Shown here: positions 3,881 through 60,525 of the stretch, piece after piece
Numbering within the stretch: position 1 is the first letter of the stretch
Layout: each line of letters opens with the position of its first letter
Virus record (IMG/VR): IMGVR_UViG_2932189381_000001
Location: 1-64,000 of that record
Source of the DNA: a virus
Taxonomy: Duplodnaviria; Caudoviricetes
Direction: 5' to 3' (one strand)
DNA length: 64,000 nucleotides
Notes under the pieces: model-generated
Told to the model about the DNA's origin: nothing
Seen by the model: only the letters and a program-made list of their open reading frames with translations
The model's database searches: none
Program-made: the position numbers and the translations under genes

Positions 3881-4047
3881 CCCGCCCGATCTCCGACCTG
3901 GACGTGCCGCTGCCGACGTTGCGGCAGCAGGTCGCCGACCTCGTCGCCCGACAGAACGAGCAGCGAGAGCAGCGCGCGGAACAGTCCGCCGAACGACTGC
4001 GGAACTTCCTCGCCCCCACCACCAACCCCGCCAAGGAGGCGTCGTGA
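3877..4047 (+). CDS. Small hypothetical protein
   Basis: Coupled overlaps, RBS. Confidence 0.6.
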   Translation: MTRPISDLDVPLPTLRQQVADLVARQNEQREQRAEQSAERLRNFLAPTTNPAKEAS

Positions 4048-4418
4048 AGCTCGCTGACATCTACCGGAAGGCCGCCCAGGTCATCGCGGCGAACGGCCAC
4101 AACAAGGGCGACTACTACCGGGTCCCCGAGTCCGGCGTCGGGATCGAACTGTCCCGCACCGAGTGGCCGGTGTGCGCGGCAGGAGCCCTGTCCGTGGCCA
4201 TGTTCGCCGACCCGGTCCCGCCCCGCGAGGACGAGGACGGCCGCCCCGAGTTCGACGCGGTCGTCACCCGCCTGAACGCCCGCATCAACGACTTCCACCT
4301 GTACGGCTTCGAGGGCGAACCGCCGGTGCTGCGATTGGCCGGCTGGAACGACAGCGAGGACATCAGCCCCGCCGACGTCATCGCCGTCTTCGAGCGCACC
4401 GCCCGCGAGGTGGCCTGA
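4044..4418 (+). CDS. DUF6197-like protein
   Basis: IYRKAAQVIAANGHNKG...CAAGAL...WND...DVIAVFERTA. Confidence 0.65.
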   Translation: MKLADIYRKAAQVIAANGHNKGDYYRVPESGVGIELSRTEWPVCAAGALSVAMFADPVPPREDEDGRPEFDAVVTRLNARINDFHLYGFEGEPPVLRLAGWNDSEDISPADVIAVFERTAREVA

Positions 4419-14682: not shown

Positions 14683-16158
14683 ATGGCGACACTCGGCCCC
14701 TACGAGGTGCACCCGTTCGCCGACGCCTTCCCGCTCATCGACGGCGAGGAGTTCGAGGAACTGGTTCGCGACGTCAAGCGCAACGGCTTGCGCGAGCCGA
14801 TCATCCTCAACCACGACCGGACCGTCCTCATCGACGGCCGCAACCGGTGGCGGGCCTGCGACGAAGCGGGCGTAGACCAGGTCTTCGAGACACTGCCCGC
14901 CCGCTACACCGAGTCGATGATCCTCGACCTGATCGTGTCGAAGAACATGGCCCGGCGGCAGCTCAACCCCGGGCAACGAGCGCTGATGGCGCTGGAGTAC
15001 GAGCGCTACTACGCCGAGGCTGCCAAGAAAGCCGAGGCCGCCCGCAAGCTGACTAACCCCAGCAATCAACATGTCACGCAGAGTAGTGCGACTCGCGCAG
15101 ATCTGCGCACTGCGGAGGAATGGGTAGAGCCGCAGGCCAGGCGTCAACAGCGATCCGACGAGCGCGCCGCGAAGGTCGTCGGAGCCTCCGGCCGTGCGGT
15201 CCAGCAAGCGAAGGCTGTGGCGCGCGACGCCCCTGACCTGGCCGCCAAGGTGCGGACAGGAGAGATCGCACTCGACGCCGCAGACAAACAGCGTCGCGCC
15301 CGCATCGCCGCCATGCCCAAGCCGGAGCGCGTTCCGTCGAAGCCGGGCCCCGTCATGTTGACGCTCCGCACTCACGACGGTGCCGAGGTCGCCTATCCGA
15401 AGCCGTCCGGAAAGGCCACGTTCAACGAGTCCAAAGGCGACGGGATTTCGTGGGCTGCCTGGTCCTGGAACCCCGTCACCGGATGCCTGCATGGCTGCAC
15501 CTACTGCTACGCCCGCGAGATCGCCACCAACGAGCGCTTCCGCCCCGGCTTCCCGGCCGGCTTCACCCCGCTGTTCCATCACGAGCGGCTTGACGCGCCG
15601 GCTAACACCGTCATCCCGGCCGCGCACCGCGACGACCCGGCCTACCAGCGAGTGTTCGTCTGCTCTATGGCCGACCTGTACGGCCGCTGGGTCCCGCAGG
15701 AGTGGATCGATCAGGTCCACGCCTCCATGTGTGCCAACCCGGCCTGGCAGTACATCACCCTCACCAAGTTCCCCGACCGATACGTCGGACTGGAGATGCC
15801 GCCCGGGGCTTGGGTCGGCACCAGTGTTGACGAACAGAAGCGCGTCCGCATCGCCGAACGAGCCTTCCAGCAGATCGACGGGGCCGCGGTCAAGTGGCTG
15901 TCCCTTGAGCCTCTGAAGGAGCCGCTCGAGTTCACGGACCTGTCGATGTTCGACTGGGTCGTCATCGGCGCTCAGACCGAAACCCGGCAGCCCGGCGGCA
16001 CGGTTCCCGCGTTCGCCCCGAACTTCGAATGGGTCGCCCGCATCGTCGCCCAGGCCCGCGAAGCCGGCTGCCGAGTGCACCTGAAGCCGAACCTCCTCGG
16101 GCGTACCGACTCCGGGCATCCCGGCATGCAGCTGCCTGACGAGTACCCGCTGCCGTGA
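14683..16158 (+). CDS. ParB-like N-terminal domain fused to DUF5131 (Gp37/Gp68, radical-SAM-like CxxxCxxC)
   Basis: HPFADAFP..DVKRNGLREPI..IDGRNRWRAC..SKNMARRQL; then WNPVTGCLHGCTYCYA, VFVCSMADL, LTK, WVGTSV, SLEPL, DWVVIG. Confidence 0.85.
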   Translation: MATLGPYEVHPFADAFPLIDGEEFEELVRDVKRNGLREPIILNHDRTVLIDGRNRWRACDEAGVDQVFETLPARYTESMILDLIVSKNMARRQLNPGQRALMALEYERYYAEAAKKAEAARKLTNPSNQHVTQSSATRADLRTAEEWVEPQARRQQRSDERAAKVVGASGRAVQQAKAVARDAPDLAAKVRTGEIALDAADKQRRARIAAMPKPERVPSKPGPVMLTLRTHDGAEVAYPKPSGKATFNESKGDGISWAAWSWNPVTGCLHGCTYCYAREIATNERFRPGFPAGFTPLFHHERLDAPANTVIPAAHRDDPAYQRVFVCSMADLYGRWVPQEWIDQVHASMCANPAWQYITLTKFPDRYVGLEMPPGAWVGTSVDEQKRVRIAERAFQQIDGAAVKWLSLEPLKEPLEFTDLSMFDWVVIGAQTETRQPGGTVPAFAPNFEWVARIVAQAREAGCRVHLKPNLLGRTDSGHPGMQLPDEYPLP

Positions 16159-29272: not shown

Positions 29273-29377
29273 GAGCAGTCCTTTCTTGACGGTTGGGACT
29301 CACTGATCAGCGGACTGGCATCCGCTGTGATGAACAGGCCGGGCGTTGGTAGCGCCCGGCCGTTCGCGTTTTCAGGG

Positions 29378-29866
29378 CTAGTTCGGCACCCGGAAGTGTC
29401 GGTTTCTCCAGGTGAGCAAGCCTTCGTCGACGAGCTCATGCAGGGCGAGGTGAGCTATCAGCGCCGACACGCCGAACTGCCGCCCAACCGGTGCGCCCTG
29501 CAGGCGAGTTCCACGCTTGTAGTCGCCTCGCTCCAGTGCTGCGCGCATTCCCTCTCGGACGGCTGTTCTCTCGGCCGTGGCGTCGTACTCGCGCGCCTTC
29601 TGCGGCCATCCCCTCCCGAGGTGGTGGTAGCCGTTGTACAGAGGACGCTCTTCCAGCATGGCTTTGGCTTCGGCCGCCAGAGCTTCCTCGCGGCTGTCGA
29701 GCCAACTGATCTCGTGGCGTGCAACGTGATGCCACCAGAGCTTGTCTCCCGCGTGCTCCTTGAGGCGCACGTCCGGGTAATGGCTGATGCCGACGTAGAG
29801 CAAGATGCCCGCTGAGTCGTACAGGCGGTAAAGCGCGCTCTTGCCGAGCGGGTAGGGGTTGGTCAT
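29378..29866 (-). CDS. GIY-YIG nuclease fused to a GntR-like wHTH
   Basis: LYRLYDSAGILLYVGIS...RLKEH..K.WW...E..A..EERPLYN; then GDYKRGTRL...QFGVS...ALHELVDEGLL. Confidence 0.8.
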   Translation of the reverse strand: MTNPYPLGKSALYRLYDSAGILLYVGISHYPDVRLKEHAGDKLWWHHVARHEISWLDSREEALAAEAKAMLEERPLYNGYHHLGRGWPQKAREYDATAERTAVREGMRAALERGDYKRGTRLQGAPVGRQFGVSALIAHLALHELVDEGLLTWRNRHFRVPN

Positions 29867-30025
29867 GTGCACCTTCCGCTATGGAGTGGTAGCAGACAGA
29901 ATCGTGCACCGGTATAGGACCAGTGTCAACATGTCTGAGTTGGCGGAGTTGTCAGCCGCTATAGAGCAGCTTGGTTCTCGCAGGTAGACAGGTACCTTTG
30001 ATGCACTCGACCACTTGAGGAGGGC

Positions 30026-30781
30026 ATGGTGAAGGATCCAGCGCAGGGCAAGACTCCGCGCTACGTAGTGATCGCGGATGAGCTGCGTGCGCGGATCAAG
30101 GCCGGCGAGTTCTCGGAGACGGGCAAGCTCCCGAGCGAGCGAGTGCTCACTGAGGAGTTCGACGCGGCCCGGAACACGATCAGGGATGCGCTCCAGCTGC
30201 TACGCGTCGACGACCTGATCGAATCGCGCGGCGGATCGGGTGTGTATCTGCGCAGCTTCCAGCGTATCCAGCAGGACGCCGTCGAGCGCCTGTCTCGGGA
30301 ACAGTGGGGCGCCGGCCGTGCCATCTGGGACAAGGATCTCCAGGGCCGTCCCCGCAGTGAAGACGTGAAGGTGTTCGAGGCGGACCCGCCCGAGCATGTG
30401 GCCCGGACTCTTGGTGTTCAGGGGCAGAAGGTCTGGTGTCGGGACAAGCTCTACCGGGCCGAAGGGCGCATCACCATGCACTCGGTGGCCTGGTATCCGG
30501 CTGACCTCGCCGAAGGTACGGCGATCACCGAGCAGAACACGGGTCCAGGTGGCGCCTATGCCCGGCTGGATGAGGTCGGCCATGGGCCTGCTCGGTTCAG
30601 CGAGGGGATCGAGGTGCGGCTCCCGCTATCGGCTGAGTCGAAGACGCTGGGCATCACGATGAGCACACCGATCATCCTTATCGTCCGAACGGCCTACGAC
30701 TCGGAGGATCGCCCGGTCGAGGTCAATGAGATGAAGCTCGACTCGGACAGCTACAGGCTGATCTACAACTTCCCCTCCTGA
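30026..30781 (+). CDS. KorSA/TraR-like GntR (HutC, UTRA) repressor
   Basis: PRYVVIADELRARIKAGEF...LPSERVL...RNTIRDALQLL; UTRA with RTAYDSEDRPVEV. Confidence 0.88.
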   Translation: MVKDPAQGKTPRYVVIADELRARIKAGEFSETGKLPSERVLTEEFDAARNTIRDALQLLRVDDLIESRGGSGVYLRSFQRIQQDAVERLSREQWGAGRAIWDKDLQGRPRSEDVKVFEADPPEHVARTLGVQGQKVWCRDKLYRAEGRITMHSVAWYPADLAEGTAITEQNTGPGGAYARLDEVGHGPARFSEGIEVRLPLSAESKTLGITMSTPIILIVRTAYDSEDRPVEVNEMKLDSDSYRLIYNFPS

Positions 30782-33423: not shown

Positions 33424-34785
33424 ATGACTGCCAGCCCGCCGAAGCTGAACGGCCAGGCCAGGCCGCCCGTGTTGGGGGACTGGCAGCCCATAGGAGCCGC
33501 CACCCCCGAGCCCGAGACCTCCGCGAGCACCGAGTCGGCGCCGCAGCAGGACAGTGAGCTCGTCGCCCAGGCGCAGGCCGAAGCGATCCGCGCGCAGGCG
33601 TGGGCGGAGTCGGAGGAGCGTCGCCTCGCCGCCGAGGCGGAGAAGGAAGCCGCGCTGAAGCGCGCCGACGCCGAAGCTGAGGCGATCCGGGTGAAGGCGG
33701 AGGAGGAGGCGCGGAAGCTGCGCCTCGCCAACGACCGGCAGGAGCGCAAGGCTGCCGAGGAGCAGGCCGCGTCCGAGGCGCGGATCGCCGAGAGCCGGCA
33801 GCGGAAGGCGGACGCCGACCGCGCCCGCGCCGACGCCGACCGTCAGGCCAAGGAGCAGCAGCAGACCGAGGCCGAGAAGGCTGAGGCTGTCGAGAAGTCC
33901 AGCGAGCGGTGGCGGAACGTGGCCCTCGGCTTCTATGGACTGTGCGCCGCGGTCGCCCTGCCGGTGCAGATGGCCGCGTTCTACGACCCGGACGCCAAGT
34001 ACCTCCTCGTCGCTCCGGTCTTCATCGAGGTGATCGCCCTGGTCGCGCTCGTGGGTGCCGCGGCTGCGGTCACGGACGGGCGCCCGCAGTGGCACTACCG
34101 GCTCGTCGCCTGGGTCGGTGCGCTCACTGCTGCGACGATCAACATCGTTCACGGCCTGGACGCCTTCGACCCCGCGACCGCGTTCGGTACCGCCCTCGCC
34201 TCCGTCGCCGGCCCCGGCATGTGGGACCTCCACGAGCACGGCCGTCTCCGGAAGCGCAACGGCAAGCCGTCGTGGCGAGAGCGCCGCGCGCAGCGGAAGG
34301 AAGCCGAGCGGATTGCCGCTGAGAAGGTCGCGGAAGAGGTGCGCGAGGCGGAGCGCCAGGCGTACCGCGAGAAGGCCGAACGCGAGGCCGTGCAGCAACT
34401 GACCGAGCGTCGCGCGAGCCTCTTCCCGAAGGTGTGGCAGCACGCCGAGAAGCTCGCCGCCGACCTCGGCGAGACGACCGTCACCCAGGCCATCTGGGAG
34501 CGCGCCAAGCTCGACGTCGAGGGCGCGAAGCCGGGCGAGTCCGCCGAGGTTCTGCGGATGCGTAACGCCGCCGAAATGAGGGTCGAAGCCGCCCGCGAAA
34601 AGCGGTGCGTAAACGGATCATCACAGCAGGTCGCATCGCAAGTGCTCGGCCCGAAGAAGACCCGCGTCTACAACCCTCCTGCGCGCCGCGGAGTGCGCAC
34701 GTCGGGCGACTCCCCGAAGCAGTCGCCGGGAGCCCGCCGACAGGCATCCATCGCCGCCAAGAACGCCCGCCAGAACGCCAACTAA
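33424..34785 (+). CDS. Pra/SpdB-like (DUF2637-type) coiled-coil membrane protein
   Basis: Long N-terminal coiled coil, about 4 TM helices (ATINIVH...ASVAGPGMWDLH), upstream of traB. Confidence 0.7.
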   Translation: MTASPPKLNGQARPPVLGDWQPIGAATPEPETSASTESAPQQDSELVAQAQAEAIRAQAWAESEERRLAAEAEKEAALKRADAEAEAIRVKAEEEARKLRLANDRQERKAAEEQAASEARIAESRQRKADADRARADADRQAKEQQQTEAEKAEAVEKSSERWRNVALGFYGLCAAVALPVQMAAFYDPDAKYLLVAPVFIEVIALVALVGAAAAVTDGRPQWHYRLVAWVGALTAATINIVHGLDAFDPATAFGTALASVAGPGMWDLHEHGRLRKRNGKPSWRERRAQRKEAERIAAEKVAEEVREAERQAYREKAEREAVQQLTERRASLFPKVWQHAEKLAADLGETTVTQAIWERAKLDVEGAKPGESAEVLRMRNAAEMRVEAAREKRCVNGSSQQVASQVLGPKKTRVYNPPARRGVRTSGDSPKQSPGARRQASIAAKNARQNAN

Positions 34786-34808: not shown

Positions 34809-35270
34809 ATGAACGCCTCTCTTCGCCGCATCGCCGTCTCGACCACCGCCACCGTCGCCCTCCTCGGAGGGGCCGCCGCGACCGCCACCGCCGCCGCTCC
34901 GGAGCACGAGGCGACCGTCGTCGCGATCGCCCGCACCGACATCCAGCCCGGCCTCACCAACGGGGTCGCTCCCGCCAACGGTGGCAGCGGCGCACCGCTG
35001 AACGGCCCGCAGCAGCAGATGCCCGCCGGCTACCCGCAGCAGATCCAGACCCAGGCGTCCGGAGCGGCGATCGGCACGGGTGTTGCCGCCATCGCGATCC
35101 TCGGCCTCGTCGTCTTCTTCCGGGTCAAGGGCGGCCACCTGAAGGTCGGTGACGCGGTCGTCGTCACGATCCTCGGTGTCGCGCTCGCCGGAACCGTGAT
35201 CGGCGGCATGGCCGATCAGCTCACGGACACCGGTGTCGCTTCGCTCAGCAACATCCTCGGCGGCCTCTGA
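34809..35270 (+). CDS. Spd-like signal-peptide/membrane protein
   Basis: Signal-like N-terminus plus two TM segments. Confidence 0.6.
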   Translation: MNASLRRIAVSTTATVALLGGAAATATAAAPEHEATVVAIARTDIQPGLTNGVAPANGGSGAPLNGPQQQMPAGYPQQIQTQASGAAIGTGVAAIAILGLVVFFRVKGGHLKVGDAVVVTILGVALAGTVIGGMADQLTDTGVASLSNILGGL

Positions 35271-35331: not shown

Positions 35332-37596
35332 GTGGCCACCGAAACCGAGTACCAGCCCTACGAGCCGTTCGAGCCGGTCGACTGGCTCGCCGAGGAGCCG
35401 GCCAAGCCCGCAGAGCCGTCCCGCGCCGACCGCGCCAAGGTGGCGTTCAAGGAGCAGCGCGGCCACGCCGCCACCCGCACGAAGGACTGGCTCGCGGGTG
35501 GCGACCTCGACCAGGTCACCGTCTTCGAACTCGCCGCCAAGAAGAAGCAGCGCAAATACGACAGCGGGCTGACCCAGCAGGAGCGGACTGCTGCCGAAGC
35601 TCGCGCCCGCTTCGAAGTCGCCAAAACCCAAGCCGAAGCCAGCGAGAAGGGCGGTAACGCCAGCAGCCTGGCCGGCTACGCCGGGAGGACCGCCGCGGCA
35701 GAAGCCAAGCTCGAGCAGTTGCGAGCCCGGCCTGTCCTCCCGCCGACCGACTGGGAGATCGCCGCCGCCCGCACCAGTAAGAAGGCAACCCGTGCCGCGA
35801 TCGTCGCCGGGGGCGGACTGGGTGCCATGTCCGTCCTGGGCGGGGCGATAGAGCAGGCCGCGACCGGGCAGCCGATGCTCCTTGCCGTGGTCACCACCGC
35901 CGCCGGGTACGGCTGGTACCTGATCTCCCGCCCGTTCGTCCGCGGTCAGGCTGGTGAGGCCCCTTTCGGGATGGCCCCGGCGAGCCTGCCCGCCACGTTC
36001 CAGGCGGAGCCGACCGGGGGAGCGATGGGCGTCGGATCGCACGTCGTCATGAACGTCGAGCAGCTCGCCGACGACGCCAAGCCCTTCCCGCTGCGGGGCG
36101 CGTCCACGCCTGAGCGGCTCGCCGAATGCGTCCTCCTCGCCGCCCGCGCCGAGAACGTGCCGATCGTCGAGGTGTCGGACGTGACCCGTCAGCCCTGGGG
36201 CTGGCAGTGCACGGTACGCGTCGGCGAAGGCACTCCCGAGGCGATCATTTCGAAGGCGGGTGACCTCGAGACCCGGTTCGATCTGAAGACGAACGGTGTC
36301 CGCCCGCAGCCCCTCAGGGCGCGTCGCGCCTGCGCGATCCTGCGCTTGGTCGAGGGCGACCCGTTCGCCACCGCCCCCGGCCTGCCCTACCGGGCCCCCA
36401 AGTCCCTGTCGATCACCGACGCGTTCCGTATCGGCACCAGTGTCGGCGGCGACCCGCTCGAGCTGTCCCTGGCCGGCGTCATGGGCCTGTGGGTGGCGGC
36501 GTCCGGCGGCGGCAAGACCGGCATCCTGCAGGCGCTCGCCGAAGGAGTGACGGCCTGCCGGGACAACATCACCATCGACCTGGATCCGTTCGGGGACGGC
36601 CTGGAGGACCTCGGTGACGCCGTCCGGATCACCGCGCGCAGCAACGAGCAGATCGAAGCGGTCCTGCTGTTCTTCCTGGTCATGGCCAAGGGCCGGGCCC
36701 GGCTGCGGGCGAAGCTCGGCATGGGCAAGAAGTGGAAGCCCAGCCCGAAGCACCCCGCCGTCACGATCTTCTTCGACGAACTGCCGAAGGCCAGCACCCT
36801 GGCCAAGCGCCTGTACAACGACCTGCTGCTCGTCGGCCGCAAGGAGCTGATCGTCGTGGAGGCCGCGTCGCAGGGCGGCCAGAGCTCCTACCTCGGAGCG
36901 AACATCGCCCAGATGGTCGCCCTCAAGGCAGTCGGCCCCTGCAAGGTCGAGGACACCAGGTCGGTCCTCGGGGACGGCTCCGTGAAGGAGGGCTACCTCC
37001 CGCACAAGCTGTCCCCGGCGACCCAGACCGACCCCAAGGACGCCGGGCACATCTTCATCCAGGGCGTGCCCGGGATGGCGGACGAGCCGATCGAGTACGC
37101 CGTCCATGAGGTGCCGTCCGCGGTACTGCGGCAGCTCGGGCAGGAGCGGCTTGAGGCCGGCCTGCTGGACCCGGACCAGGACAGCCTCGACGCGATGCGC
37201 GGCGTGGACCTGCCCGAGTACGTCGAGCCGGAGTACGACAAGGACGGCGACCTGAAGAAGCCGGCGCCGGTCGAGCTCCTCACGTGGGAGCAGCTGCTGC
37301 GCCTGTGCGATGCCGAGCCGCCCGCGGGTGCCGAGCTGTCGGACGGCCCAGCGCGGGCTGCGGTCGAGGACGCGGTGACCGTCATGGAGAAGGCGGGCGT
37401 CGACCGGATGAAGACCGAGGTGCTCCTTGCCGCACTCCAGGAGTACGACCCGGACGCCTACGGGGAGTTGGGTGTCGACGAGTTCAAGGCGCTGCTGAAG
37501 AAGGCGGGCGCCGGGGCGCCGCTGACGCTCGGTCCGATCGGTGAGGAGAAGAATCCGCGCGGCTTCAAGCGTGATCGCCTCCGTCACCTCCTGTGA
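35332..37596 (+). CDS. traB: TraB-like FtsK/SpoIIIE conjugative DNA translocase
   Basis: Two N-terminal TMs, Walker A AASGGGKT, Walker B IFFDE, GRK.LI...ASQ, C-terminal wHTH ending NPRGFKR. Confidence 0.85.
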   Translation: MATETEYQPYEPFEPVDWLAEEPAKPAEPSRADRAKVAFKEQRGHAATRTKDWLAGGDLDQVTVFELAAKKKQRKYDSGLTQQERTAAEARARFEVAKTQAEASEKGGNASSLAGYAGRTAAAEAKLEQLRARPVLPPTDWEIAAARTSKKATRAAIVAGGGLGAMSVLGGAIEQAATGQPMLLAVVTTAAGYGWYLISRPFVRGQAGEAPFGMAPASLPATFQAEPTGGAMGVGSHVVMNVEQLADDAKPFPLRGASTPERLAECVLLAARAENVPIVEVSDVTRQPWGWQCTVRVGEGTPEAIISKAGDLETRFDLKTNGVRPQPLRARRACAILRLVEGDPFATAPGLPYRAPKSLSITDAFRIGTSVGGDPLELSLAGVMGLWVAASGGGKTGILQALAEGVTACRDNITIDLDPFGDGLEDLGDAVRITARSNEQIEAVLLFFLVMAKGRARLRAKLGMGKKWKPSPKHPAVTIFFDELPKASTLAKRLYNDLLLVGRKELIVVEAASQGGQSSYLGANIAQMVALKAVGPCKVEDTRSVLGDGSVKEGYLPHKLSPATQTDPKDAGHIFIQGVPGMADEPIEYAVHEVPSAVLRQLGQERLEAGLLDPDQDSLDAMRGVDLPEYVEPEYDKDGDLKKPAPVELLTWEQLLRLCDAEPPAGAELSDGPARAAVEDAVTVMEKAGVDRMKTEVLLAALQEYDPDAYGELGVDEFKALLKKAGAGAPLTLGPIGEEKNPRGFKRDRLRHLL

Positions 37597-37616
37597 CCGA
37601 TACGCGAACTATGTAC

Positions 37617-37780
37617 CCCTGATCAGGGCTCGCTCAGCCCTGATCAGGCTGCAAACCCGCAGGTCGCAGTCGCTCAGCCTGCTGCTCACCGTCTGCTCAA
37701 CCTCTGCTCTGAGCAGCCCGTGAGCAGATCCCAGAGCAGCCCTGACCTGCACCTTTCCCCACCGAGCAGCCCTGATCAGC
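37617..37780. repeat. clt-like locus (cis-acting locus of transfer)
   Basis: Directly after traB: CTGCTC x3 then GAGCAG x4 at ~11-12 bp spacing around CTGCTCTGAGCAG; CCCTGATCAG x3; CGCTCAGCC x2. Confidence 0.7.
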
Positions 37781-37820
37781 AGGAACAAACCATCACAAAC
37801 CAGAAACGGAGATCATCGCC

Positions 37821-38222
37821 ATGCCGAAGTCCTGGGACCCCTCGAAGGCGAAGAAGTTCGCCAAGGAGGCCCGCCTCAACGTGCCCTACTACGTCGTCTA
37901 CGACATCGCCCAGAACCGGGCCCCTTACGAGGACGCCCAGCTGTACTCGGAGTTCACCTTCACCCGGAGGGCGCCGCTCACCGGCAACCCGATGACGGAC
38001 GGCGGCACCAGCGCCGAAGGGCTCTGCCTGCGCTTCGGGCCCGTCTACGACCAGCCCCCGGCCGGCATGCGCAACGTCGCCGGACCCGGCCCGCAGGTCG
38101 GTGCGCCGCTCGGCGAGGACCACTCCGCCTACCTGGACGAGGCCGAACTGCGCGGCATGGAGAAGCTCGCCGCCCAGGGGGCCGACCCGCGCGCCCGCCG
38201 CATCCGCGGCCGACGTGTCTGA
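37821..38222 (+). CDS. Hypothetical protein
   Basis: RBS GGAG, codon bias. Confidence 0.7.
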   Translation: MPKSWDPSKAKKFAKEARLNVPYYVVYDIAQNRAPYEDAQLYSEFTFTRRAPLTGNPMTDGGTSAEGLCLRFGPVYDQPPAGMRNVAGPGPQVGAPLGEDHSAYLDEAELRGMEKLAAQGADPRARRIRGRRV

Positions 38223-38784: not shown

Positions 38785-38970
38785 ATGCCCCACCGAATGG
38801 CCGACCAGCAGTGGGAGGCCCAGAACGGCAGCCTCTCCCCGGACGAAGCCCGAGCCCGCGGCCTGTGCTGGTGCTGCAGCGGCAACGGCGCCCTCTACAG
38901 CGCCCATGGCGGAGAGCGGATCACGGCGCCGTGCCCCGAGCGCTGCGACAACGGCAAGGCCCGCCGATGA
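38785..38970 (+). CDS. Small Cys-rich (DnaJ-like zinc finger) protein
   Basis: CWCCSGNG...CPERCDNG. Confidence 0.6.
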   Translation: MPHRMADQQWEAQNGSLSPDEARARGLCWCCSGNGALYSAHGGERITAPCPERCDNGKARR

Positions 38971-39455
38971 CCATCACCGCCCTCCGGCCGTCCGTCAACA
39001 CCACCCTCAACCTCGAGACCCGGCTCGCCCTGGTCGACGCCGCCATGTCGGTCCGCCTCGACGAGGCCGCGGTCGCCTTCGAGGTCAACACCGCGCACCT
39101 GCCCGGCGCTGACCCGATTCCGCTGCGCCTCACCCCGACCGCGGCACCCAACCCGTACCGGACGCCGATCGCCGGCCTCCTCCACCGGGCCCGAATCCGG
39201 CTCGAGACCAGCGGCTGGTGCCGCGATGCCCTCTACGACGAGTCCGGTGCCGTCTGCCCGATCCGTGCGATCCGCCTCGAAGCAGCCGGCCGCGACCAGG
39301 CGCACGACGCCTGCGTGCTCCTCCTCGACGCCATTCAGGCCGACTTCCCGGGCGCGGAAACCATCCCGTCCTGGAACGCCGACCAGACCAGCCCGACACC
39401 CGTCCTGCACGCCTTCGACCGCGCAGCCAACCACGCCCACAACCGCGGCCTCTGA
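38967..39455 (+). CDS. DUF6197-like protein (second copy)
   Basis: LLHRARIRLETSGWC...CPIRAI...IPSWN...VLHAFDRAA. Confidence 0.65.
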   Translation: MTITALRPSVNTTLNLETRLALVDAAMSVRLDEAAVAFEVNTAHLPGADPIPLRLTPTAAPNPYRTPIAGLLHRARIRLETSGWCRDALYDESGAVCPIRAIRLEAAGRDQAHDACVLLLDAIQADFPGAETIPSWNADQTSPTPVLHAFDRAANHAHNRGL

Positions 39456-57061: not shown

Positions 57062-57700
57062 ATGACGTCGACCGCCGTAGCCCGCTGCAAGGAGTGCGAG
57101 CAGTGCGCCGGCCCGATGCCGCTGATGGCGCGGGCTGATGCACGCTTCTGCGGTGCGACCTGCAGGAAGCGTGCGAGTCGAACCCGGATCGCGCAGCGAC
57201 AGCAGCAGGTGACGTCCGAGCAAGCGGCCCGCATTCCCGCCGAGTTGACGTCTCGTCCTCGCTGGGTGCGGCACAAGGACAAGGTGCCGATGCGCACCGA
57301 CGGCCGTTTCGCCTCGGTGAACGACCCGTCGTCCTGGTCGGACTTTGCCGCGGCGTCCTCGTCGCAGACTGGCGACGGTGTCGGCTTCGTCTTGACGGCC
57401 GGCGACGGCATCGTCGTCATCGACTTGGACCACGCTGTCGAGGACGGCCGGGTCCTGCCGTGGGCGCAGGCCATCGTCGACCAGCTGCCGCCGACGTACA
57501 TGGAGCGGGGCCGGTCCGGCACCGGCCTGCATCTGTGGTTCCGCGGTGCGGTCCCAGCTGGCCGGCGTATCCGGCGGGGGGAGTTGGCGGTCGAGGTGTA
57601 CTCGGATCGCCGCTACATGATTGTGGGCGACCGGGTTTCTGGTACGCCGCTTGAGCTTGCCGTGCTGCCTGACGTAGCCGGTTTGATCGCTTCGCTCTGA
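57062..57700 (+). CDS. Stand-alone primase-polymerase (NrS-1-like prim-pol) domain with N-terminal zinc finger
   Basis: CEQC...ARFCGATCR; IPAEL..RPRWV..KVP...ASVNDPSSW..F; GVGFVL, IDLDH, E.GRSGTGLHLW, EVY..RY. Confidence 0.75.
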   Translation: MTSTAVARCKECEQCAGPMPLMARADARFCGATCRKRASRTRIAQRQQQVTSEQAARIPAELTSRPRWVRHKDKVPMRTDGRFASVNDPSSWSDFAAASSSQTGDGVGFVLTAGDGIVVIDLDHAVEDGRVLPWAQAIVDQLPPTYMERGRSGTGLHLWFRGAVPAGRRIRRGELAVEVYSDRRYMIVGDRVSGTPLELAVLPDVAGLIASL

Positions 57701-58773: not shown

Positions 58774-60525
58774 ATGCCTGTCGCCACCGCCGAGCCCGAA
58801 GTCCCAGAGAAGGTAGAGCCGTTCACGTTGGGGCCCACCTGGAAGAGGGGGCAAGACGGTCGGTTCATTCTTCCCGAGTACACCCTCGGTTGGCACGCTC
58901 TTGCTTGGACGTCGACGTACCTGCAGCACTACGCAGGAAGCCCCTGGCGATACACCCCTGAACAAGCGCGTTTGACCCTTTGGTGGTACGCGATGGACCC
59001 GGAGACGAACCGGTTCCTGTGGCGTGACGGTGTGATCCAACGCTTGAAGGGCTGGGGCAAGGACCCGGTCGTGGCGTCGTGGGGAGCGTTCGAGTTTGTC
59101 GGCCCGTGCCGGTTCGGCGAGGTCGCCGACGAGGGCAATGAGTGGGGGGTCCCTGCCGGTCAGCCTCTGGGTGTGCAGCATCCGGCGGCGTGGGTGCAGA
59201 TGGCGGCGGTCAGCCAGGACCAGACCCGCAACACGATGACCATTTTCCCGAGCTTGCTGAGTAAGCGGGCGATCGAGGAGTACCGCATCGACCTCGGCAA
59301 GGAGATCATCTATGCCGACAAGGGGCGGGCCCGGATCGAAGCCGTGACGTCGTCACCACGCGCTCTGGAGGGTGGCCGGCCGACGGCCACCTACCCCAAC
59401 GAGACGCACCACTGGCTGGAGTCGAACCAGGGCCACGAGATGGACGCCGTGATCGAGCGCAATGCAACGAAGTCGGCGGACGGTCAGTCCCGCACGCTAG
59501 CGATCACGAATGCGTTCGAGCCGGGCGAGGACTCGGTGGCAGAGCGCGCCCGTGACGCCTATGAAGCGATGGAAGCCGGTCGGGTCGCGGACACGGGCCT
59601 GTTCTACGACACGCTGGAGGCTCCGCCTGAGGCGAAGCTGACGGAGGCGTGGATCGAGCCGACGCTCAGGGCGGTACGCGGGGACTCGACGTGGCTGGAC
59701 ATCAGCCGGCTGAAGGCGTCGATTCTGGACCCGCGGAACCCTCCGAGCCGCAGTCGGCGCTTCTGGTACAACCAGATCGTCGCTGCTGAGGACGCGTGGA
59801 TGGCCCGCTACGAGTGGGACGCCTGCAAGCGCGAAGGCGTGCAGTTGGCCGACAGTGACGAGGTCGTCCTGTTCTTCGACGGCTCCAAGTCCGACGACGC
59901 GACAGGGCTGTGCGCCTGCCGTATGTCGGACGGTCTCGTGACCGCTCTGGGTGTGTGGCAGAAGCCTGCGAACTGGCCAGCGCCGAACACGCCGGGGTTC
60001 GTGCCGTACCAGATCCCGCGGGATGAGGTGCACGGCATGGTGGAGAATGCGTTCGCCCGGTACCGGGTGCTGGCGTTCTTCGCGGACCCGGGCTCGGGCC
60101 AGGGCGATGACGGCGAGATGTACTGGGATTCCTTCATCGACCTGTGGGGTCAGACGTGGGGGGCGAAGTTGGCTCTCCGGTCGGTGCTGGCGGGTCCGAA
60201 GGCGCATGCGGTGCGTTGGGACATGCGTGACTCGCGGAATCAGGAGACGTTCACGGAGGCCGTGAAGCGCACCCACGCGGACGTGCTGGAGCGGACGCTC
60301 ATCCATGACGGGCACAAGGTGCTCCGCACCCACGTGATCAACGCGCGCCGCCGGACGAATCGTTGGGGGATCACGATCGGCAAGGAGCACCGTGAGTCCG
60401 CCCGAAAGATCGACCTCGCCATCTGCATGGTCGGGGCGCGGATGCTGCGCCGGATGATCCTCAACTCACCGAAGCGACCCAAGAAGCGCACGCCGGGCAA
60501 GGGGAGGGTGGTGGTGCTGCGATGA
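58774..60525 (+). CDS. terL: Terminase large subunit
   Basis: QRLKGWGKDP Walker A, AAVSQDQT, NETHHW, FFDGSKSDDAT nuclease, KID. Confidence 0.95.
   Translation: MPVATAEPEVPEKVEPFTLGPTWKRGQDGRFILPEYTLGWHALAWTSTYLQHYAGSPWRYTPEQARLTLWWYAMDPETNRFLWRDGVIQRLKGWGKDPVVASWGAFEFVGPCRFGEVADEGNEWGVPAGQPLGVQHPAAWVQMAAVSQDQTRNTMTIFPSLLSKRAIEEYRIDLGKEIIYADKGRARIEAVTSSPRALEGGRPTATYPNETHHWLESNQGHEMDAVIERNATKSADGQSRTLAITNAFEPGEDSVAERARDAYEAMEAGRVADTGLFYDTLEAPPEAKLTEAWIEPTLRAVRGDSTWLDISRLKASILDPRNPPSRSRRFWYNQIVAAEDAWMARYEWDACKREGVQLADSDEVVLFFDGSKSDDATGLCACRMSDGLVTALGVWQKPANWPAPNTPGFVPYQIPRDEVHGMVENAFARYRVLAFFADPGSGQGDDGEMYWDSFIDLWGQTWGAKLALRSVLAGPKAHAVRWDMRDSRNQETFTEAVKRTHADVLERTLIHDGHKVLRTHVINARRRTNRWGITIGKEHRESARKIDLAICMVGARMLRRMILNSPKRPKKRTPGKGRVVVLR

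Follow-up and report, generated by a model that had tools for sequence, protein, structure and literature searches.

What function is served by an array of short repeats that directly follows a translocase gene in the genome of a Streptomyces phage, and which protein reads it? The question arises from the virus record IMGVR_UViG_2932189381_000001 (Duplodnaviria; Caudoviricetes), which comprises 88,037 bases and whose first 64,000 nucleotides are here called the window. The window contains a traB-like gene (35332..37596, plus strand) encoding a predicted membrane-anchored double-stranded DNA (dsDNA) translocase of the FtsK/SpoIIIE type, 754 amino acids (aa) long from GTG 35332. The 225-bp spacer behind this gene carries 12 copies of the 8-mer CTG[A/C]TCAG. 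An earlier interpretation, referred to here as the sequence-only reading, had compared the repeats with clt, the locus beside traB that is recognised by TraB, and had suggested that their inverted layout could load TraB in both directions. Our analysis points to a related answer: the array is likely to be a clt-type cis site at which the TraB-like translocase encoded just upstream docks and loads.

Anatomy and conservation of the repeat array

The array is 165 bp long (37617-37781) and begins 21 bp past the traB stop codon. Read in register, its repeat unit is an 8-mer with three forms, forward (CTGCTCAG), reverse (CTGAGCAG) and palindromic (CTGATCAG). Seven forward units, starting at 37619, 37630, 37640, 37670, 37682, 37693 and 37704, are followed by five reverse units, starting at 37709, 37720, 37732, 37762 and 37772. 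The spacings are 11, 10, 30, 12, 11 and 11 bp in the left half and 11, 12, 30 and 10 bp in the right half. The polarity of the units switches at a centre at 37710, from which both sides mirror each other outward, the left side having an extra core unit and an extra end unit. The symmetric change of orientation described in the sequence-only reading was thus confirmed, and the coordinates it had given proved exact: CTGCTC lies at 37682, 37693 and 37704 (11 and 11 bp apart) and GAGCAG at 37711, 37722, 37734 and 37764 (11, 12 and 30 bp apart), in keeping with the spacing of about 11 bp that it had noted.

From left to right, the array opens with the outer-left units U1-U3 (37619..37647; CTGATCAG, TCGCTCAG and CTGATCAG, spaced by 11 and 10 bp). 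The core forward units U4-U7 (37670..37711, plus strand; TCGCTCAG, CTGCTCAC, CTGCTCAA and CTGCTCTG, spaced by 12, 11 and 11 bp) are followed by the core reverse units U8-U10 (37709..37739, minus strand; CTGAGCAG, GTGAGCAG and CAGAGCAG, spaced by 11 and 12 bp), and the outer-right units U11-U12 (37762..37779, minus strand; CCGAGCAG and CTGATCAG, 10 bp apart) complete the array. One bracket word sits in each 30-bp gap, at a distance of 4 bp from the core units and 12 bp from the outer ones. The left bracket word GCAGGTCG (37659..37666) stands where most relatives have GCAGGTCA and is preceded by GCAAACC at 37651-37657; the right bracket word TGACCTGC (37743..37750) is the reverse complement of the left one. 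The sequence-only reading had assigned the bracketing role to CCCTGATCAG units. Such units are present, at 37617, 37638 and 37770, but they are not a separate element: because the 8-mer read in register includes a palindromic form, they are the same motif as the other units, and the true brackets are GCAGGTCG and TGACCTGC.

Behind the array lies a conserved leader (37785..37811, plus strand; consensus GAACAAACCACCACAAACC), which consists of ACAAACC-N3-ACAAACC and then GGAG at 37808-37811 and stands directly before the ATG at 37821. Words of the form (G/A)CAAACC recur alongside the array, at 37651-37657, 37785-37791 and 37795-37801.

Across the 88,037-base record there are 134 copies of the hexamer GAGCAG/CTGCTC (1.52 per kb); the densest 100-bp segment, with seven of them, lies in the array. 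The strict core CTG[AC]TC/GA[GT]CAG occurs 221 times in the record, with 13 copies in the best 165-bp segment (start 37616) and three or fewer per segment elsewhere. The Poisson probability of a 13-copy segment is 1.2e-15, or 6e-13 once multiplied by the number of segments. A chance origin of the repeat cluster is excluded. Two other copies of CTGATCAG, at 29303 and 40845, look isolated.

The architecture of the array and the register of its units were found behind the traB stop codon in all 21 Streptomyces genome loci fetched (20 distinct); L009 duplicates L008, and L032 duplicates L003. On viral contigs the same position is occupied in 18 loci, 16 of which have both brackets and 13 of which have at least three forward and at least two reverse oriented cores, none out of order. 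The span from bracket to bracket is exactly 92 nt in most loci, and in L001 it is short by exactly one 11-bp unit. For the oriented core YGCTC/GAGCR, all forward copies precede all reverse copies in 21 of 25 rows; the exceptions are L016 and L018, with 3 of 28 pairs breaking the order in each, and L002 and L021, whose words are different. When the top hexamer of each locus was scored, 27 of 39 rows had no out-of-order pairs, 11 had such pairs and one had no reverse copy; in seven of those 11 rows the top hexamer falls inside the palindromic form.

Where the word has changed, it has changed in concert across the units, to CTGCTCGG in L016 and L018, to CTGATCGG in L014 and to CTGCTA[GC] in L021, while L002 has CTGGTC in the left half and ATAGCRG in the right half. 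The plasmids pFP1 and NZ_CP108056.1, whose TraB proteins are 33-34% identical to that of the window, have the same brackets around CTCTAC/GTAGAG units. A search with the TraB tail only, covering 401 Streptomycetaceae genomes, matched 17 of them. Distant relatives found by the tail carry CCCGGTCG/CGACCACC, CCCGGT/ACCGGG or CCCGTCC/GGACGGG, again forward and then reverse; in distant relatives (L035-L044), as judged by eye, GGTTTG and CAAACC words replace the bracket words. No comparable array follows the gene in L024, a linear plasmid of S. nojiriensis with a TraB 42% identical, nor in L043 and L046, which have only a GC-rich hairpin after the gene, and the DNA of 37400-38000 gave no match when compared with plasmids. 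Judging from the loci compared, these are clade-specific motifs in one shared design. In S. acidicola the same traB locus is present twice on one 207-kb contig (55949-66207 and 145830-156088), about 90 kb apart and with identical downstream sequence; the L008/L009 pair may represent two prophage copies or an assembly duplication.

The TraB tail as candidate reader of the repeats

Several lines agree in placing the traB product in the FtsK/SpoIIIE superfamily. It matches phrog_12531 'FtsK/SpoIIIE-like' with an E of 8.4e-65, and a profile built from 59 diverse TraB relatives matches the FtsK motor 2ius (E 1.5e-15). An AlphaFold2 (AF2) model of the protein (pLDDT 89.2) has the FtsK motor 2iut_A as its best Foldseek match (E 2.4e-13, TM(target) 0.66). 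The Pfam families PF01580 and FtsK_gamma match 13 and 4 of the 59 relatives, respectively, and neither matches the window protein. Walker A codons (GGGKTG) lie at 36505..36522 and Walker B-like TIFFDELP codons start at about 36769, both on the plus strand. The N-terminal membrane segment is predicted from Kyte-Doolittle hydropathy: one 19-residue stretch exceeds 1.5, starting at residue 155, and a second hydrophobic stretch lies at about residues 181-197.

The last approximately 80 residues of TraB form a helix-strand-helix-helix-wing arrangement in the AF2 model (domain pLDDT 87.6). This predicted C-terminal domain (37348..37590, plus strand; topology H-E-H-H-wing) contains a putative recognition helix, VDEFKALLKK (codons 37474-37503, plus strand). 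In VIA-align, the tail reached a best Z of 7.0, against an ORC/Cdc6 winged helix, which is below the tool's caution line of 8; the matches listed were mostly winged-helix. Foldseek with the tail returned nothing at E<=0.001, the best E being 0.1. Because the VIA-align score lies below the caution line and Foldseek gave no match at that threshold, we call the tail winged-helix-like and treat the assignment as provisional. The tail module is also found on other motors and as small stand-alone proteins.

Across 38 loci, similarity in the 6-mer content of the repeats was compared with protein identity, which gave a Spearman coefficient of 0.66 for the C-terminal 70 aa of TraB and 0.54 for its motor; the partial correlations were 0.47 for the tail and 0.13 for the motor. 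Among 21 close loci, repeat content followed the C-terminal tail (rho 0.35, Mantel p 0.02), but neither the motor (rho 0.05, Mantel p 0.28) nor a 133-aa protein encoded downstream of the array (37821..38222, plus strand; rho -0.05, Mantel p 0.66). Two loci behave like natural domain swaps. In L002, where the motor is 91% identical to that of the window and the tail only 66%, the motif has changed, and in L034, where the motor is only 38% identical, the motif is kept. These comparisons indicate that repeat content tracks the TraB C-terminal tail and not the motor or the 133-aa gene.

We propose that one TraB C-terminal winged-helix domain would read each 8-mer CTG[A/C]TCAG. Several tails of a membrane-bound hexamer would bind together and so nucleate assembly of the ring on the element's own dsDNA. 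The spacing of 10-12 bp puts the units roughly on one face of the helix, so that several tails could bind jointly. Since the units point opposite ways in the two halves, the site offers both polarities, which might serve two opposed hexamers or an orientation-independent capture; a site of both polarities would permit DNA pumping from both arms. The analysis establishes how the array is built, that it is conserved and linked to traB, and that it co-varies with the TraB tail; TraB binding, its stoichiometry and its direction at the array are what we infer here. Loading in both directions, as suggested in the sequence-only reading, is plausible because the unit polarity switches.

A clt-like site beside traB, as claimed in that reading, is well backed by the computational results: an FtsK-type motor with a hydrophobic N-terminal segment and a C-terminal winged-helix-like domain is encoded upstream, related genes likewise have the array at their 3' end, and its repeats vary with the TraB tail and not with the motor or the downstream gene. 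With clt the locus shares its position at the 3' end of a tra gene, the presence of several repeats of 7-9 bp and an element-specific word matched to the TraB tail, this matching having exceptions in L007, L014 and L020.

A number of observations weigh against this interpretation. In the three exceptional loci the tails are 81-87% identical to that of the window, yet the repeat spectra differ (cosine 0.18-0.37), the core YG[AC]TC being kept. The bracket words are invariant and are left unexplained by a reader domain that varies. For a ring around DNA, direct repeats would be the expected preference over inverted ones, so that two rings have to be assumed in addition to account for the mirrored layout. 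The winged-helix assignment of the tail is weak on the Foldseek and VIA-align scores given above, and the window TraB has no Pfam or NCBIfam match of its own, of which the missing Pfam match counts here. Among 48 plasmid matches to the window TraB, pFP1 (33% identical over about 450 aa) is the only named plasmid known to have been studied, and a BLAST-level match to the classic small plasmids was not found; pSVH1, pIJ101 and pJV1 are not named among the 48, the presence of their records in the collection being unchecked. Finally, the tail codons adjoin the array, and joint inheritance by recombination could mimic co-variation. The 133-aa gene is equally adjacent without co-varying, and this concern is therefore limited.

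A bolder form of the proposal, which we hold to be rather unlikely, is that the array is a bipolar loading site at which two opposed TraB rings pump both arms of the phage genome and extrude a dsDNA loop into the neighbouring compartment or cell. The invariant brackets would then fix the geometry, their reader being either a conserved TraB region or a host factor, and the outcome would be spread without a capsid. If this held, a temperate Streptomyces phage family would gain a capsid-free, plasmid-like mode of spread, and an integrated prophage would mobilise the flanking chromosome on two sides.

Other functions considered for the array

The array could instead regulate the downstream operon (the 133-aa gene, a DUF6197 gene and others) as an operator or similar region, with a different protein of the element bound to it. 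Candidates for this protein are the 133-aa product, a GntR regulator and the 153-aa product encoded upstream of traB, and its binding would control transcription reading out of traB. The array does lie in the 5' leader of the 133-aa gene, with the conserved leader and ribosome-binding site coming after it, and this gene accompanies traB in 21 of 21 loci. A precedent exists in SpdA2, which is described as binding palindromic (sps) repeats in or upstream of spdA (PMC4170104). However, the repeats co-vary with the TraB tail and not with the 133-aa protein, as the correlations above indicate. In L008/L009, L010 and L012, moreover, a small open reading frame (ORF) of 61-67 aa comes between the array and the 133-aa gene, with the array keeping its place at the traB stop codon. 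This inserted ORF differs per lineage and lies after the conserved leader. Replacement of the 133-aa gene in L008, L010 and L012 was considered and rejected; the gene is present, shifted by about 220-250 bp by the insertion. A consensus scan of 37300-38100 found no sigma-70-like promoter, other promoter types being outside the scan. The upstream region of the GntR gene itself (29873-30025) has no such array, and a GntR operator was rejected for this lack of the motif. The sps motif, a 12-bp palindrome (CGTCACGTGACG), has no match in the window with up to one mismatch, and an sps/SpdA system was rejected on this basis. Regulation of the downstream operon is, in our judgement, an improbable function of the array.

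In an iteron-type replication origin, a Rep protein would bind iterons of both orientations, which together make up a long discontinuous inverted repeat. Iterons are typically spaced by about 11 bp. The iteron of pWTY27, as described, consists of five 8-bp repeats and five complement copies in an inverted repeat of about 105 bp bound by RepA (PMC3583192). The layout of the array closely resembles that of this iteron. Against an origin of this kind, the array adjoins traB in every locus and never rep, and the flanking genes match no Rep, primase or helicase family; a primase-polymerase-like gene (57266-57700) lies 20 kb off. On pFP1, the array likewise follows traB, and the repeat content co-varies with the TraB tail. 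We regard a replication origin as very unlikely.

A structure formed on a single strand, either an interrupted RNA hairpin (attenuator, terminator or processing site) or a single-stranded DNA hairpin (single-strand origin), is marginally less credible still. The predicted fold of 37650-37760 as single-stranded DNA is an interrupted hairpin with four helices (-23.7 kcal/mol; z -3.4 against shuffles), and the brackets pair in 98.6% of the cells compared. However, pairing over 21 sequences (88.1%) barely differs from that with shuffled partners (87.5%; reached by 82 of 500 shuffles), nor does the covariation score (0.097 against 0.089; reached by 86 of 500). U6/U9 fails to pair at its central base in 9 of 21 sequences, the inter-unit spacers lack complementarity, U1-U3 and U11-U12 bear the same motif outside any stem, and the left and right core units of L002 are different, non-pairing words. 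No Rfam family reached its threshold, and a hairpin or RNA element was rejected, the fold beating shuffles without support from covariation. A promoter or terminator was rejected as well, since the consensus scan found no such site. The best Rfam match is to the Streptomyces small RNA Scr5676 (37533-37679, minus strand), with 23.4 bits where the gathering score is 56 (E 0.025); it overlaps both the stop codon of traB and the left portion of the array and is probably due to chance.

Prophage context and comparison with known systems

Upstream of traB, the module includes a 453-aa gene two genes before it (33424..34785, plus strand), which is syntenic with DUF2637-annotated genes of pFP1 and NZ_CP108056.1; in 14 of the 21 related loci, traB has a homolog of this gene upstream. 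Immediately 5' of traB lies a 153-aa gene (34809..35270, plus strand), which was called from GC content at third codon positions and has a homolog in 12 of the 21 loci. Neither its product nor that of the 133-aa gene has a Pfam or PHROG match. Upstream of the module, a GntR/UTRA regulator gene (30026..30781, plus strand; Pfam GntR 1.6e-15, UTRA 1.6e-20) occupies the position of TraR/KorA-type regulators on plasmids, and pFP1 likewise has a GntR gene before its tra operon. Divergent from it is the gene for a 164-aa protein (29378-29872, minus strand) in which a GIY-YIG nuclease domain is joined to a GntR-type helix-turn-helix. The record contains two DUF6197 genes, one in the early region (4044-4418) and one two genes past traB (38967-39455). 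A 491-aa protein (14683-16158) combines a ParB N-terminal domain with DUF5131.

The record, which is flagged as virus, carries early genes (a DNA polymerase III beta-like gene, PDDEXK nuclease, WhiB, HNH and C5 methylase) together with terminase (at 58972), portal (at 60522), tape-measure and tail genes; the size and position of a 1606-aa ORF (69068-73888) mark it as the presumed tape measure. The ORFs scanned, all of which lie within the first 64 kb of the record, yielded no integrase family. In three other Streptomyces genomes, 19, 43 and 43 of the 103 record proteins match collinearly around traB homologs. These matches extend from the early genes across the TraB module and on to terminase, portal, tape measure and tail; the module is therefore a conserved part of this approximately 88-kb temperate siphovirus and its family, and not an insert. 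The possibility that an actinomycete integrative and conjugative element or plasmid-like element had inserted into a phage was rejected on the same matches. That the element is a prophage, and neither a plasmid nor an integrative element of that kind, had gone unnoticed in the sequence-only reading.

The plasmids NZ_CP108705.1 (88,191 bp, circular) and NZ_CP109578.1 (92,397 bp, linear) have a portal 85% identical to that of the window, and close relatives of the window phage therefore exist as plasmids. As carriers of the window TraB lineage they were rejected, their FtsK-like genes being only 26-32% identical, and that in the P-loop region only. This low match in plasmids that share the portal suggests that the transfer module is exchangeable between relatives. 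Relatives of TraB are also found in 89 Streptomyces phage records, with identities of up to about 38% among the best 25 of the 89.

The module's conservation within a prophage family suggests that, for some temperate Streptomyces phages, TraB offers a further way of moving, as DNA. If true, this would make phages and conjugative elements harder to tell apart. In the literature the question has been raised whether mobilisation of the chromosome by an integrated element is one-sided or two-sided (PMC11571958). The fixed and deeply conserved two-polarity design makes this question testable, as well as the loading and movement of a TraB ring on a covalently closed dsDNA circle. In practical terms, genomes can be searched for such sites by a simple signature, bracket words combined with phased repeats.

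Among the systems with which the array can be compared, FtsK with its orienting polar sequences (KOPS) and SpoIIIE with its recognition sequences (SRS) belong to the same motor superfamily and rely on an 8-bp polar word, the reader of which is a C-terminal winged-helix (gamma) domain. KOPS occur all along the chromosome and switch polarity at one point, dif. In contrast, the words of the window are packed into 165 bp, and Pfam FtsK_gamma misses the window TraB. Outside the array, the 7-mer occurs in 4 forward and 4 reverse copies upstream and in 2 and 5 downstream within the 88-kb record, which at such small counts is no clear KOPS-like skew.

A closer parallel is found in pFP1 of Streptomyces sp. 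FQ1 (NC_006912.1), with the gene order GntR, DUF2637 gene, traB and array, a TraB 33% identical, the same bracket words and units that run forward and then reverse. The traB gene of pFP1 was reportedly found to be functional by Zhang and colleagues in 2008. Unlike the window, pFP1 is a 39-kb circular plasmid, its unit is CTCTAC/GTAGAG and its brackets extend to a 13-nt inverted pair.

The elements pZL12 and its relative pSLE1, of about 90 kb, are described as combining phage particle genes with plasmid-type functions (PMC4487206), and pZL12 is stated to need its major tra gene for transfer (PMC3583192). The relatives of the window phage differ in that, in the three genomes examined, they sit integrated in chromosomes.

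In the accounts cited here, clt loci lie at the 3' end of the tra gene, contain direct repeats of 7-9 bp together with inverted repeats, are bound by TraA/TraB via helix alpha-3 in a winged helix-turn-helix (wHTH) domain at the C terminus and have a word that differs from element to element (PMC3583192, PMC4447253, PMC4170104). For pSVH1, a TraB that forms an FtsK-like hexamer reads with helix alpha-3 of its C-terminal wHTH the repeated 8-bp TraB recognition sequence (TRS) in the clt by its own gene (PMC4170104, PMC4447253, PMC3583192). The same passages describe the TRS repeats as direct (PMC4170104, PMC4447253, PMC3583192), whereas the window array switches polarity half-way. The clt of pIJ101 is quoted with three G(C/A)AAC direct repeats (PMC3583192). 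The clt of pWTY27, whose translocase is TraA, covers 16 bp inside traA and 159 bp after it, is reported to contain several 7-bp and inverted repeats, and is bound at two footprints by TraA, which has N-terminal membrane segments (PMC3583192). Like the window array, the RepA iteron of the same plasmid is a protein-bound long discontinuous inverted repeat, in the latter case next to repA/repB and serving replication (PMC3583192). Compared with the pWTY27 clt, the window locus has twelve 8-mers, a mirror layout, fixed brackets, another motif and a prophage host. In the literature covered, which excluded Vogelmann 2011, Zhang 2008, Ducote 2000 and Zhong 2010, no description of a phage-borne TraB with a clt and a mirrored array was found. 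The array differs from the clt loci of those accounts in three ways: its strict mirror layout with fixed brackets, how deeply this layout is conserved (in plasmids, prophages and viral contigs alike), and its being hosted by a phage.

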